64,000 nt of DNA from Shigella phage ESh17. A model generated the notes under the pieces. It was not told where the DNA came from. It did no database searches and saw nothing but the letters and a program-made list of their open reading frames with translations. Both the position numbers and the translations under genes were made by a program. Below, piece after piece: positions 10,470-25,409 of the stretch. Numbering within the stretch: the first letter of the stretch is position 1; each line of letters starts with the position of its first letter. The stretch lies in sequence record ON528727; one strand, 5' to 3'.

Positions 10470-11672
10470 ATGAAAGTATGTATTTTTATGGCTCGAGGTC
10501 TTGAAGGTTGTGGTGTAACAAAATTCTCACTCGAGCAACGTGATTGGTTTATTAAAAATGGTCATGAAGTAACTTTGGTTTATGCTAAAGATAAATCATT
10601 TACTCGTAATTGCGCGCATGATTATAAATCATTTTCAATTCCGGTTTTATTGGCAAAAGAATATGATAAAACACTTAAGCTGGTAAATGATTGTGATATT
10701 CTAATTATCAATTCAGTTCCTGCTTCTTCGGTTGAAGAAGACACGATTAATAACTATAAAAAAATTATTGATAACATTAAACCTTCTGTTCGTGTTGTAG
10801 TTTATCAACATGACCATTCTTCTCTTTCTTTGCGTCGAAATTTGGGATTAGAAGAAACTGTTCGTCGAGCTGATGTTATTTTTAGCCATTCTGATAATGG
10901 TGATTTTAATAAAGTTCTGATGAAAGAGTGGTATCCAGAAACTGTTTCTCTGTTTGATGATATTGAAGAAGCACCGACCGTATATAACTTTCAGCCTCCT
11001 ATGGATATTGCGAAGGTTCGATCAACCTACTGGAAAGATGTTTCTGAAATTAACATGAATATCAACCGTTGGATTGGTCGTACGACTACATGGAAAGGTT
11101 TTTATCAGATGTTTGATTTTCACGAAAAACATCTTAAACCTGCAGGACTAAGTACTATTATGGAAGGTCTGGAACGTTCTCCAGCGTTCATTCCTATTAA
11201 AGAAAAAGGAATTCCATACGAGTATTATCGTCTTCATCAAGTAGACCAAATTAAAATTGCTCCTAATTTGCCAACGCAAATTCTTGACCGTTATGTAAAT
11301 AGCGAAATGCTTGAACGTATGAGTAAATCCGGATTTGGTTATCAGCTGAGTAAGTTGGACAAAAAATATCTACAGCGTTCTTTAGAATATACTCATCTCG
11401 AGCTTGGTGCATGCGGAACAATTCCGGTATTTTGGAAATCTACTGGCGAAAATTTAAAATTCCGTGTTGATAATACTCCTTTGACCTCGCATGATAGCGG
11501 TATCATTTGGTTTGATGAAAATGATATGGAATCAACATTTGAACGTATTAAAGAACTGTCATCTGACCGAACTCTTTATGACCGCGAACGTGAAAAAGCT
11601 TATGAATTTTTGTATCAGCATCAAGATTCAAGCTTCTGCTTTAAAGAACAGTTTGACATTATTACAAAATAA
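10470..11672 (+). CDS. agt: DNA alpha-glucosyltransferase
   Basis: 400 aa; position between 55 and 47 as in T4; length matches T4 alpha-gt. Confidence 0.8.
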   Translation: MKVCIFMARGLEGCGVTKFSLEQRDWFIKNGHEVTLVYAKDKSFTRNCAHDYKSFSIPVLLAKEYDKTLKLVNDCDILIINSVPASSVEEDTINNYKKIIDNIKPSVRVVVYQHDHSSLSLRRNLGLEETVRRADVIFSHSDNGDFNKVLMKEWYPETVSLFDDIEEAPTVYNFQPPMDIAKVRSTYWKDVSEINMNINRWIGRTTTWKGFYQMFDFHEKHLKPAGLSTIMEGLERSPAFIPIKEKGIPYEYYRLHQVDQIKIAPNLPTQILDRYVNSEMLERMSKSGFGYQLSKLDKKYLQRSLEYTHLELGACGTIPVFWKSTGENLKFRVDNTPLTSHDSGIIWFDENDMESTFERIKELSSDRTLYDREREKAYEFLYQHQDSSFCFKEQFDIITK

Positions 11673-21500: not shown

Positions 21501-21530
21501 CTATCAACTAATACGGATTTGGAGAATAAA

Positions 21531-21767
21531 ATGAAAATTGTTTATGGTTGCTTAGCAATGTGTTTAGTTGCATTAGCAGCAGTTCCATTTGTTAGTGTTG
21601 AAAATGATACTCAACCTGTGATTGAATCTAGCACCGTTATTCACACTAATGGTAAAATATCAGTTAAAATTGATGATAATCTTCATGTGAATACAAATGG
21701 ATCTTTAGGTGTGCAAATGGGTAATACCTGCATAAGCACTACTGGAGTAATTACTACTTGCATTTGA
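21531..21767 (+). CDS. small secreted protein (signal peptide)
   Basis: ATG 21531 downstream of the early promoter; N-terminal hydrophobic signal-like segment. Confidence 0.45.
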   Translation: MKIVYGCLAMCLVALAAVPFVSVENDTQPVIESSTVIHTNGKISVKIDDNLHVNTNGSLGVQMGNTCISTTGVITTCI

Positions 21768-22165: not shown

Positions 22166-22417
22166 ATGGAAACTTTAGTAGCAGGTTCAATTTTTATGGT
22201 TTTAGTTTCAGGTGTGTTGGCTATTATTATATACATGCTTCCATGGTTTATCGCCTTGATGCGTGGGTCAAAATCGACAGTAGGAATCTTTTTCACATCT
22301 TTACTGTTTAACTGGTCAATTATTGGTTGGTTTATTACATTTATTTGGTCAATTGCGGGTGAAACTAAAAAGTCTGCACAACCAAATCAGGTAATTATCA
22401 TCAGAGAGAAGGAATGA
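22166..22417 (+). CDS. imm: immunity to superinfection membrane protein
   Basis: 83 aa, two transmembrane segments; sequence and position (between 43 and 42) as in T4. Confidence 0.8.
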   Translation: METLVAGSIFMVLVSGVLAIIIYMLPWFIALMRGSKSTVGIFFTSLLFNWSIIGWFITFIWSIAGETKKSAQPNQVIIIREKE

Positions 22418-22563
22418 AAAGCAAAATTATAGCAGTGTTGCTTTTAATCTTGATGATTATAATAAGTATATACTATAGTGTAACGGTTCCTCTTATGATT
22501 CCAACTATTATTTTAGGTTGGGGTTTATTACTGTTACAAGTTAAATATGAATGTATCAATTGA
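22414..22563 (+). CDS. small membrane protein (49 aa)
   Basis: ATGA overlap with the imm stop; strongly hydrophobic; not in the supplied track. Confidence 0.4.
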   Translation: MKSKIIAVLLLILMIIISIYYSVTVPLMIPTIILGWGLLLLQVKYECIN

Positions 22564-22570
22564 GGTTTAA

Positions 22571-23311
22571 ATGATTAGTGACTCTATGACAGTTGAAGAA
22601 ATCCGTCTTCATTTGGGGCTTGCATTAAAAGAAAAAGATTTCGTAGTTGATAAAACTGGTGTTAAAACTATTGAAATTATTGGCGCATCATTTGTAGCAG
22701 ATGAACCGTTTATTTTTGGCGCTCTTAATGATGAATACATTCAGCGTGAACTTGAATGGTATAAATCTAAGAGCTTGTTTGTTAAAGATATTCCAGGTGA
22801 AACACCAAAGATTTGGCAGCAGGTAGCATCTTCTAAAGGCGAAATTAACTCGAATTATGGTTGGGCTATTTGGTCAGAAGATAACTATGCCCAGTATGAT
22901 ATGTGTTTAGCTGAACTTGGTCAAAATCCTGATTCTCGACGTGGTATCATGATTTATACTCGTCCATCCATGCAATTTGACTACAATAAAGATGGTATGT
23001 CAGATTTCATGTGTACTAATACAGTACAGTACCTGATTCGTGATAAGAAAGTCAATGCAGTAGTAAGCATGCGCTCAAATGACGTGGTCTTCGGATTCCG
23101 TAATGACTATGCATGGCAAAAATACGTACTAGATAAATTAGTATCTGATTTGAATGCAGGCGATTCAACTCGTCAGTATAAAGCAGGTTCTATTATATGG
23201 AATGTTGGAAGTCTTCATGTATATTCTCGTCATTTTTACTTGGTTGATCATTGGTGGAATACTGGCGAAACTCATATTGTGAAAAAAGATTATAACGGTG
23301 AGTGGAAATGA
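22571..23311 (+). CDS. 42: dCMP hydroxymethylase gp42
   Basis: 246 aa; position and length as in T4. Confidence 0.85.
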   Translation: MISDSMTVEEIRLHLGLALKEKDFVVDKTGVKTIEIIGASFVADEPFIFGALNDEYIQRELEWYKSKSLFVKDIPGETPKIWQQVASSKGEINSNYGWAIWSEDNYAQYDMCLAELGQNPDSRRGIMIYTRPSMQFDYNKDGMSDFMCTNTVQYLIRDKKVNAVVSMRSNDVVFGFRNDYAWQKYVLDKLVSDLNAGDSTRQYKAGSIIWNVGSLHVYSRHFYLVDHWWNTGETHIVKKDYNGEWK

Positions 23312-24150
23312 TTCAATTCGTAATTCCAAGTTATCAGCGTGTCGGGGCAGTTTCTGCCCTTGATATGTTTCCGACTGATTATGAACCGCATATTGTAGTG
23401 CGTGAACACGAAGAAAAAGCTTATTATGATGCCTATGGGTCTAGAGCTAAAATTATAACTATTCCTGATGATGTAAACGGAATTGCCGGTACTCGTAAAG
23501 CAATTACTGATATGTATGCAGGTCAACGAATCTGGATGATTGACGATGATACTACTATTCGTATGAGTTCAATGCGAAAAAGAGATGATCGTCGTTGTGT
23601 GGATAAAGTCAATCAATTGACTCGTGAACAGTTCTATGAATTGATTCAATATGTTGAGGATGCCATGGATTGTGGGTATTATCATGGCCATGCTCGTCTA
23701 CCTATTTTTAAAATTACTTCATCTTGGGGTAATTATCGTGAAAATTCATATGGATTCACGAATACATGGTATGACCTCGGAAAACTTACTACAGAACAAA
23801 TTGGGTATGGAAAAATTGATTTATGCGAAGATATGTATGCATTTCTCAATTTAATTAATCAAGGTTATCCGCATTTGGCCTTGTTCAAATATCTAGTTGT
23901 ATCTGGAAAAGCACAAGCTCCTGGCGGATGTAGTTCAATTCGTAGTAATTCTAAACATAATAGAGCGCTTGAGCAAATCAATAGAGAGTTTCCAGAGCAA
24001 GCTCGTTGGAAAACTTCTAATATTGAAAAACGAAAATCGTTGGGTGAAGAAGATGAACCACTAAAGGTTCTTCGCATGTGTGTTTCGCGTAAAGAAAAAT
24101 CAGAAGCATTTCATAAGTTTAATGCTATTCATCCAATAGCAGTTGATTAA
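23308..24150 (+). CDS. putative glycosyltransferase (DXD motif), candidate second glucosyl-HMC transferase
   Basis: 280 aa from ATG 23308 (ATGA overlap with gene 42); IWMIDDDTT DXD-type motif; occupies the position where T4 has beta-gt. Confidence 0.55.
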   Translation: MIQFVIPSYQRVGAVSALDMFPTDYEPHIVVREHEEKAYYDAYGSRAKIITIPDDVNGIAGTRKAITDMYAGQRIWMIDDDTTIRMSSMRKRDDRRCVDKVNQLTREQFYELIQYVEDAMDCGYYHGHARLPIFKITSSWGNYRENSYGFTNTWYDLGKLTTEQIGYGKIDLCEDMYAFLNLINQGYPHLALFKYLVVSGKAQAPGGCSSIRSNSKHNRALEQINREFPEQARWKTSNIEKRKSLGEEDEPLKVLRMCVSRKEKSEAFHKFNAIHPIAVD

Positions 24151-24227
24151 TGCCTAAATTTATTGTGTTATAATTACTCTATCTTTAACCAGTGAGGAAA
24201 ATATAATGATGCCTATGGAAAAAATGA

Positions 24228-25409
24228 ATGTCTATTGCAGATTTAAAATCCCGTTTGATTAAAGCTTCAACTTCTAAAATGACTGCTGAACTGACTACAT
24301 CTAAATTCTTTAATGAAAAGGATGTAATCCGTACAAAAATCCCAATGCTTAATATTGCTATTTCTGGCGCGATTGATGGCGGTATGCAGTCTGGTTTAAC
24401 TATTTTCGCAGGGCCTTCTAAACACTTTAAATCAAATATGTCTTTGACTATGGTTGCGGCATATTTGAACAAATATCCTGACGCGGTTTGTCTATTCTAT
24501 GATAGCGAATTTGGTATTACTCCAGCTTATTTGCGATCCATGGGAGTTGACCCGGAACGAGTAATTCATACACCAATTCAGTCAGTTGAACAGCTGAAAA
24601 TTGATATGGTGAATCAGCTTGAAGCTATTGAGCGTGGTGAAAAGGTTATTGTATTCATCGACTCAATCGGTAATATGGCTTCTAAGAAAGAAACGGAAGA
24701 TGCCTTGAATGAAAAATCTGTGGCAGATATGACTCGTGCTAAATCACTGAAGTCATTATTCCGTATTGTTACTCCTTATTTTAGCATTAAAAATATTCCG
24801 TGCGTTGCGGTTAACCATACAATTGAAACAATTGAAATGTTTAGTAAAACCGTAATGACAGGTGGTACAGGCGTAATGTATTCGGCTGATACCGTATTCA
24901 TTATCGGTAAACGTCAGATTAAAGATGGTTCTGATCTTCAGGGGTATCAATTTGTTCTAAATGTAGAAAAATCTCGTACCGTTAAAGAAAAAAGTAAATT
25001 CTTTATTGATGTTAAATTTGACGGTGGTATCGATCCTTATTCTGGATTGTTAGATATGGCTCTAGAATTAGGATTCGTGGTAAAACCTAAAAATGGCTGG
25101 TATGCTCGTGAATTTCTTGACGAAGAAACCGGCGAGATGATTCGCGAAGAAAAATCTTGGCGTGCAAAAGATACCAACTGCACTACATTCTGGGGTCCTT
25201 TATTTAAGCATCAACCATTCCGAGATGCTATTAAACGTGCTTATCAGTTAGGTGCTATTGATAGTAATGAAATTGTTGAAGCTGAAGTTGATGAATTGAT
25301 TAACTCAAAGGTTGAAAAATTTAAATCTCCAGAAAGTAAAAGTAAATCAGCAGCTGATTTAGAAACTGACCTCGAACAGTTAAGTGATATGGAAGAATTT
25401 AATGAATAA
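24228..25409 (+). CDS. uvsX: recombinase UvsX (RecA-like)
   Basis: 393 aa; Walker A GPSKHFKS; C-terminal acidic tail. Confidence 0.9.
   Translation: MSIADLKSRLIKASTSKMTAELTTSKFFNEKDVIRTKIPMLNIAISGAIDGGMQSGLTIFAGPSKHFKSNMSLTMVAAYLNKYPDAVCLFYDSEFGITPAYLRSMGVDPERVIHTPIQSVEQLKIDMVNQLEAIERGEKVIVFIDSIGNMASKKETEDALNEKSVADMTRAKSLKSLFRIVTPYFSIKNIPCVAVNHTIETIEMFSKTVMTGGTGVMYSADTVFIIGKRQIKDGSDLQGYQFVLNVEKSRTVKEKSKFFIDVKFDGGIDPYSGLLDMALELGFVVKPKNGWYAREFLDEETGEMIREEKSWRAKDTNCTTFWGPLFKHQPFRDAIKRAYQLGAIDSNEIVEAEVDELINSKVEKFKSPESKSKSAADLETDLEQLSDMEEFNE

Follow-up and report, generated by a model that had tools for sequence, protein, structure and literature searches.

Gene organization between gene 42 and uvsX

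The analysed stretch of DNA, hereafter the window, comprises 64,000 nucleotides of Shigella phage ESh17 (ON528727). Between gene 42 and uvsX it carries ggt, a 280-aa open reading frame (ORF) recognized both in the ORF list and by inspection of the sequence (Table 1). A reading made without database searches (the sequence-only reading) had proposed a DXD-motif glycosyltransferase here, pointing to the motif IWMIDDDTT, which we located at residues 75–83. All the features that it named were found at the positions it gave. The frame is closed by a TAA (24148–24150). In the mechanical ORF list it starts two codons earlier, at GTG 23302, giving 282 aa. We rejected this start and preferred ATG 23308, because the latter is the annotated ggt start in RB18, T2, ECML-134, Solly and BGP, and because a Shine-Dalgarno-like GGTGAG lies 5 nt upstream of it.

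The start codon (ATG, 23308–23310) overlaps the stop codon (TGA, 23309–23311) of the upstream 246-aa ORF, gene 42. This ATGA overlap, also seen in the sequence-only reading, is likewise annotated in RB18, T2, ECML-134, Solly and BGP, and suggests that ggt is probably translationally coupled to gene 42. Downstream, uvsX starts at 24228, after a spacer of 77 nt (24151–24227, + strand).

Table 1 Features of the ggt locus and of its pathway partners in the 64-kb window.
Feature	Position	Strand	Evidence
ggt / ba-gt / TAGT CDS, beta-glucosyl-HMC-alpha-glucosyltransferase, 280 aa	23308..24150	+	ORF, phrog_842, PF20691, DNA matches, GT-A fold (predicted model)
ATGA overlap, ggt start codon / gene 42 stop codon	23308..23311	+	Sequence; homolog annotations
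GGTGAG, Shine-Dalgarno-like, within end of gene 42	23297..23302	+	Sequence; putative function
Arg11 codon, family-invariant, in N-terminal IPSYQR motif	23338..23340	+	R in 121/121 aligned members
Asp79-Asp80-Asp81 codons, DXD motif; putative metal and UDP-sugar diphosphate site	23542..23550	+	Conservation, model, 9JMA alignment
Glu174-Asp175 codons, "ED" motif; Asp175 putative catalytic base	23827..23832	+	Conservation, model, GT2 analogy
Hairpin in ggt codons 10–21	23337..23368	+	Folding energy, terminator-like flag, DalCa annotation
Gene 42, dCMP hydroxymethylase, makes hmC precursor	22571..23311	+	Match to T4 enzyme, PDB 1B49/1B5E
alpha-gt, DNA alpha-glucosyltransferase, makes ggt acceptor alpha-glucosyl-hmC	10470..11672	+	Match to T4 AGT, PDB 1XV5

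Pairwise comparisons with six homologous ggt genes gave 10–33 synonymous and 0–7 non-synonymous codon differences, and an exhaustive profile search of the protein family recovered 2144 representative clusters at E ≤ 0.001 (737 at E ≤ 1e-10). The predominance of synonymous differences indicates purifying selection. Therefore, and also given the size of the family, ggt is a genuine gene rather than a chance ORF.

Two other ORFs were recognized upstream of gene 42. A hydrophobic 49-aa ORF (MKSKIIAVLLLILMIIISIYYSVTVPLMIPTIILGWGLLLLQVKYECIN; 22414–22563, + strand) occupies the 153-nt "gap" that separates imm from gene 42, and its ATG forms an ATGA overlap with the stop codon of imm. T4, T6 and RB18 have an intact version of it, with conservative changes. 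The ORF is unannotated in the records of T4, T6, T2, RB18 and ECML-134; ESh18 and BGP alone annotate it, naming it a hypothetical or phage protein. This ORF may encode an overlooked small membrane protein. An 82-aa ORF between gene 43 and imm.1 (21519–21767, + strand) has a signal-peptide-like N-terminus. Hypothetical genes are found at its position in RB18 (RB18ORF048), T2 (RB51ORF048) and ESh18. The T2 record AP018813 has there the implausible label "tail tape measure protein", and the T4 and T6 (MH550421) records have no gene annotated.

Identity of the ggt product

In the PHROG database, the ggt protein matched phrog_842, "beta-glucosyl-HMC-alpha-glucosyltransferase" (E = 6e-89, residues 1–275). 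In Pfam, it matched PF20691, "TET-associated glycosyltransferase" (TAGT), with 38.9 bits at a gathering cut-off of 27.5 bits, residues 3–207 aligning with positions 2–205 of the 205 in the profile. No NCBIfam model was found for either this protein or the alpha-glucosyltransferase (alpha-GT).

By megablast, ggt was present at ≥90% DNA identity in 474 phage records, each match covering at least 80% of the gene. These were mostly Tequatrovirus phages of Escherichia, Shigella, Yersinia and Salmonella, and one record, Shigella phage ESh18, was 100% identical over ggt. The surrounding 24 kb were 97–98% identical to Tequatrovirus genomes. Many of the matching records name the gene ggt or beta-glucosyl-HMC-alpha-glucosyltransferase. 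Annotation is uneven among the records matching positions 22571–24150: ggt goes under "hypothetical protein", "glucosyl transferase", "beta-glucosyltransferase" or ggt, "thymidylate synthase" is a frequent name for the dCMP hydroxymethylase, and RB18 has a shortened, 537-nt CDS for this enzyme.

At the protein level, ggt was 100% identical to its counterparts in ECML-134 and Solly (for Solly, with 16 synonymous and no non-synonymous codon differences). The alignment with the second glucosyltransferase of T2 and T6, a check suggested in the sequence-only reading, gave 278 of 280 identical residues for T2 (His11 and Ser251, against Arg11 and Pro251 in the window) and 277 of 280 for T6 (N40, G55 and H106, against Y40, D55 and R106). 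These differences from T2 and T6 are at the level of alleles only. The BGP protein differed at seven residues. The T2/T6 enzyme also has the same length of 280 aa, the same position between 42 and uvsX, the ATGA overlap and the same partner genes. As for these partners in the window, the gene 42 product matched the T4 dCMP hydroxymethylase (E = 1.7e-165) and the 400-aa alpha-gt product, recognized as conserved already in the sequence-only reading, matched the T4 enzyme (E = 8.5e-257).

With full-length homology, the location between 42 and uvsX, the hydroxymethylase and alpha-GT partners, and no T4 beta-glucosyltransferase (beta-GT) within the 64-kb window, all found in the present analysis, we are highly confident that the product of 23308–24150 is the beta-glucosyl-HMC-alpha-glucosyltransferase of the T2/T6 type, which acts second in a two-step pathway of DNA glucosylation. 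The gene is the T2/T6 enzyme itself, already described, widely annotated and textbook knowledge for T-even phages. PMC13216743 traces the original work on T-even glucosylation to Lehman & Pratt 1960, Kornberg et al. 1961 and Kuno & Lehman 1962, and the description of this enzyme activity to the last two. Cloning of ggt is credited to Winkler & Rueger 1993 (NAR 21:1500) in PMC11946311. Publications of 2024–2026 reported the GT-A fold of this enzyme type, how it is distributed and what phenotypes follow its deletion. Our identification thus adds no new biology, the activity being known since 1961–62 and the gene since 1993.

Comparison with the T4 beta-GT

In T4, the interval between 42 and uvsX holds the 351-aa beta-gt, as stated in the sequence-only reading, and in addition the GIY-YIG homing endonuclease gene segA (L003:4571–5236), located between beta-gt and uvsX. 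Using tblastn, we found neither gene in the 64-kb window (best E of 1.2 for the T4 beta-GT). The T4 beta-GT (b-gt, PDB 1JG7) resembles the ggt enzyme in its slot 3′ of gene 42, in the use of UDP-glucose, in the beta linkage and in acting on hmC DNA after replication. However, it has a GT-B fold and bare hmC as acceptor, whereas the ggt enzyme has a predicted GT-A fold and alpha-glucosyl-hmC as its expected acceptor. A relationship between the two was rejected, with a BLASTP E value of 2.2, that is, no similarity, and with different folds. The two genes are equivalent by position, not by evolution. Among the genomes surveyed in PMC13216743, alpha-GT plus TAGT is the common state and the alpha plus beta pair of T4 is rare (6 of 753).

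The shared slot could also be read as functional replacement, with ggt encoding a primary beta-glucosyltransferase that acts on bare hmC. The records of SH7, KRT47 and teqskov, which say (putative) beta-glucosyltransferase, agree with this, and about 1/4 to 1/3 of the hmC does remain bare in these phages. We consider such an activity extremely improbable, given the lack of sequence similarity to the T4 beta-GT and the different fold. Moreover, beta-glucosyl-hmC went undetected in phages with an identical or near-identical enzyme (PMC13390438), and T6 without ba-gt keeps its alpha-glucosyl-hmC and loses the second glucose only (PMC11078745; PMC13160076).

Fold and conserved residues

Searching the PDB with the protein sequence gave only noise (E > 1), and a profile of 121 sequences had as its best match the GT2 glucosyltransferase 9JMA, at a non-significant E of 0.09. 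Because these sequence and profile searches found no solved structure for any TAGT family member, the fold was taken from a predicted model. In the model, the protein forms a single Rossmann-like alpha/beta/alpha domain, the DXD motif lying where the fourth beta-strand ends. This makes it, as modelled, a small GT-A enzyme of one domain. The model agreed with the GT-A glycosyltransferase that had been expected from the motif.

Conservation was assessed in an alignment of 121 full-length family members, down to 17% identity. Invariant residues were R11, D80, D175, G186 and G207. The flanking D79 and D81 were Asp in 119 of the 121 members, and E174 was present in 94. At least 90% conserved were I6, P7, R63, L180, G206, R212 and P229. 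The window protein has R11, DDD 79–81, D175, G186, GG 206–207 and R212. The invariant R11, DDD, D175 and GG(C)S..R are shared with PF20691 members of other phages, the distant ones being 12–20% identical to the window protein. BFVD models of PF20691 members from Ralstonia phage phiRSL1 and from Synechococcus and Lactobacillus phages were structurally similar to it.

In the predicted model, the DDD directly follows beta-strand 74–78, and residue 174, next to Asp175, starts the helix 174–184. The DDD aligned with the DDD of 9JMA. By analogy with GT2 enzymes, the DDD most likely holds a divalent metal and the UDP diphosphate, and Asp175 most likely is the catalytic base. These roles would fit an inverting mechanism, from UDP-alpha-glucose to a beta-linked product. 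They are drawn from the predicted model and from analogy, because the sequence links to GT2 are non-significant: Pfam GT2 did not match the window protein at E ≤ 1, and there was no significant sequence match with inverting GT-A enzymes of CAZy GT2 (AvpGT 9JMA, TarP 6H1J, TarS 5TZE, BcsA 4P00, SpsA 1H7L). The GT2 acceptors are lipids, polysaccharides or teichoic acids, whereas that of the ggt enzyme would be a sugar on duplex DNA. In its expected mode of action the enzyme resembles inverting GT-A transferases of the GT2 type; by sequence it is no GT2 member.

A large and diverse family such as TAGT, with its 2144 representative clusters, leaves room for a sugar or an acceptor different from those of the T2/T6 enzyme. 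Many of its members occur without an alpha- or beta-GT (PMC13216743), and different modified bases are the predicted targets of those found in other phages. For the window protein, the chance of such a difference is almost negligible, considering its 98–100% amino acid identity to enzymes with a measured product, and the presence of the pathway partners gene 42 and alpha-gt in the same window. A two-step logic, with a first transferase placing a sugar on the modified cytosine and a second building the disaccharide, has been described for the second arabinosyltransferase of RB69/Mosigvirus (PMC13390438). It is analogous by this description only, with arabinose as sugar, a 5-hydroxy-dC precursor and another genomic location.

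Allele variation and an intragenic hairpin

Every T2 record examined had His at residue 11, versus Arg in all 121 of the diverse family members, including the window protein. The T2 records AP018813 (L006:4283–5125, − strand) and MH751506 (L008:4286–5128, − strand) encode a ggt protein with both R11H and P251S. The exact 60-nt T2 ggt allele was found in eight records only, seven of T2 plus SV76. The His11 records are AP018813, MH751506, LC348380/NC_054931, PV958097 and PV648363/4 for T2, and SV76. It is conceivable, though on balance unlikely, that residue 11, possibly together with P251S, sets whether the DNA carries mostly mono-alpha-glucosyl-hmC, as in T2 with about 5% gentiobiosyl-hmC, or mostly gentiobiosyl-hmC, as in T6, Solly and, by prediction, the window phage. 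A hypomorphic R11H could then explain the low gentiobiosyl content of T2. If true, residue 11 would also set the sensitivity to defences specific for alpha-glucosyl-hmC, for example Brig1, and would explain a difference between T2 and T6 known since 1960.

Two T6 records had apparently damaging changes in ggt, neither of them present in the window allele. In MH550421 (L002:3138–3980, − strand), codon 10 is changed from CAG to an amber TAG, and the gene is annotated from Met20 as a 261-aa CDS. This amber allele was found in the MH550421 record only. In AP018814, also RefSeq NC_054907 (L007:4135–4974, − strand), one Asp of the DDD is lost in frame. These changes could be laboratory mutations, reflect a history in suppressor hosts, or be sequencing errors. 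With two T6 stocks affected, the RefSeq T6 reference protein may therefore be atypical.

About 30 nt into ggt we recognized a strong hairpin with a minimum free energy of −18.8 kcal/mol (z = −5.0), matched by none of 200 shuffles. Its core is GGGCAG-UUU-CUGCCC, with an extended stem, and it was flagged as terminator-like. At the equivalent site, the record of phage DalCa has a rho-independent terminator annotated. The hairpin could terminate the transcripts of gene 42 or make them more stable, or it could modulate the expression of ggt, which it might lower. A promoter scan covering the sigma-70 type, as distinct from T4 middle and late promoters, gave 18, against 13.4 ± 3.3 expected.

Such a hairpin near the gene start, the T2 example of a phage having ggt yet little gentiobiosyl-hmC, and the two altered T6 records would all be in line with a ggt that is present here yet weak or silent, the DNA being mainly mono-alpha-glucosylated as in T2. 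This is very unlikely for the window phage. Its allele retains all the residues that are invariant in the family, among them the Arg11 that is His in T2, and, compared with its relatives, nearly all of its substitutions are synonymous. RB18 has an identical hairpin sequence, and so does T6 across the 171 nt that were aligned. The protein is identical in amino acids to that of Solly, whose DNA is about 2/3 gentiobiosyl-hmC.

Proposed pathway and DNA modification

In the proposed pathway, Gp42 would make 5-hydroxymethyl-dCMP, leading to phage DNA with hmC instead of C. The alpha-GT would use UDP-glucose to place an alpha-linked glucose on the hydroxymethyl group. The ggt enzyme, whose expression would go with that of gene 42, probably because the ATGA couples their translation, would then attach a further glucose, again taken from UDP-glucose, to the first one by a beta-1,6 bond, yielding alpha-gentiobiosyl-hmC. 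A pattern different from T4 had been predicted in the sequence-only reading, with a second glucose of the T2/T6 type as a possibility. This interpretation is supported in all its parts, by the identity or near-identity to the Solly, T2 and T6 enzymes, by the partner genes and by the absence of beta-gt from the window. The product and phenotypes considered here are those published for identical or near-identical proteins.

Gentiobiosyl-hmC amounts to about 5% in T2 and about 72% in T6, and T4 has none (PMC13390438; PMC13160076). In Tequatrovirus phages of the Durham collection, which have alpha-GT and TAGT and no beta-GT, HPLC/MS detected alpha-gentiobiosyl-mdC and no beta-glucosyl-mdC (PMC13390438). 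For Solly and six relatives, the DNA had about 1/3 hmdC and 2/3 of the gentiobiosyl form, and a ratio of about 1:2:2 was found for BGP, EL and Geo (PMC13390438). Because the window protein is identical in amino acids to that of Solly, we predict a Solly/T6-like pattern for the virion DNA: about 1/3 bare hmC, about 2/3 gentiobiosyl-hmC, little mono-alpha-glucosyl-hmC and no beta-glucosyl-hmC. Phages with very similar enzymes (T2, T6, the BGP group) differ in how far their DNA is diglucosylated, so that the ratio expected here is by analogy with Solly only.

An influence of the second glucose on sensitivity to host defences, likewise anticipated from the sequence, finds support in the literature. 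Loss of ba-gt leaves T6 with alpha-glucosyl-hmC alone and raises its sensitivity to the glycosylase Brig1 (PMC11078745), and loss of g-gt turns T6 DNA into a substrate of the deglucosylase BapA (PMC13160076). In the window phage, the second glucose would shield the DNA from defences recognizing alpha-glucosyl-hmC, such as Brig1, and not from enzymes of the GmrSD/BrxU type.

Identifying ggt helps to correct annotations and to predict host range and sensitivity to defences. The gene would set the sugar pattern on cytosine, gentiobiosyl-hmC versus the mix of alpha- and beta-monoglucosyl-hmC in T4, and thereby which host defences act: Brig1-type glycosylases and BapA, which act on alpha-glucosyl-hmC, would be blocked by the second glucose, and GmrSD and BrxU would still cut.
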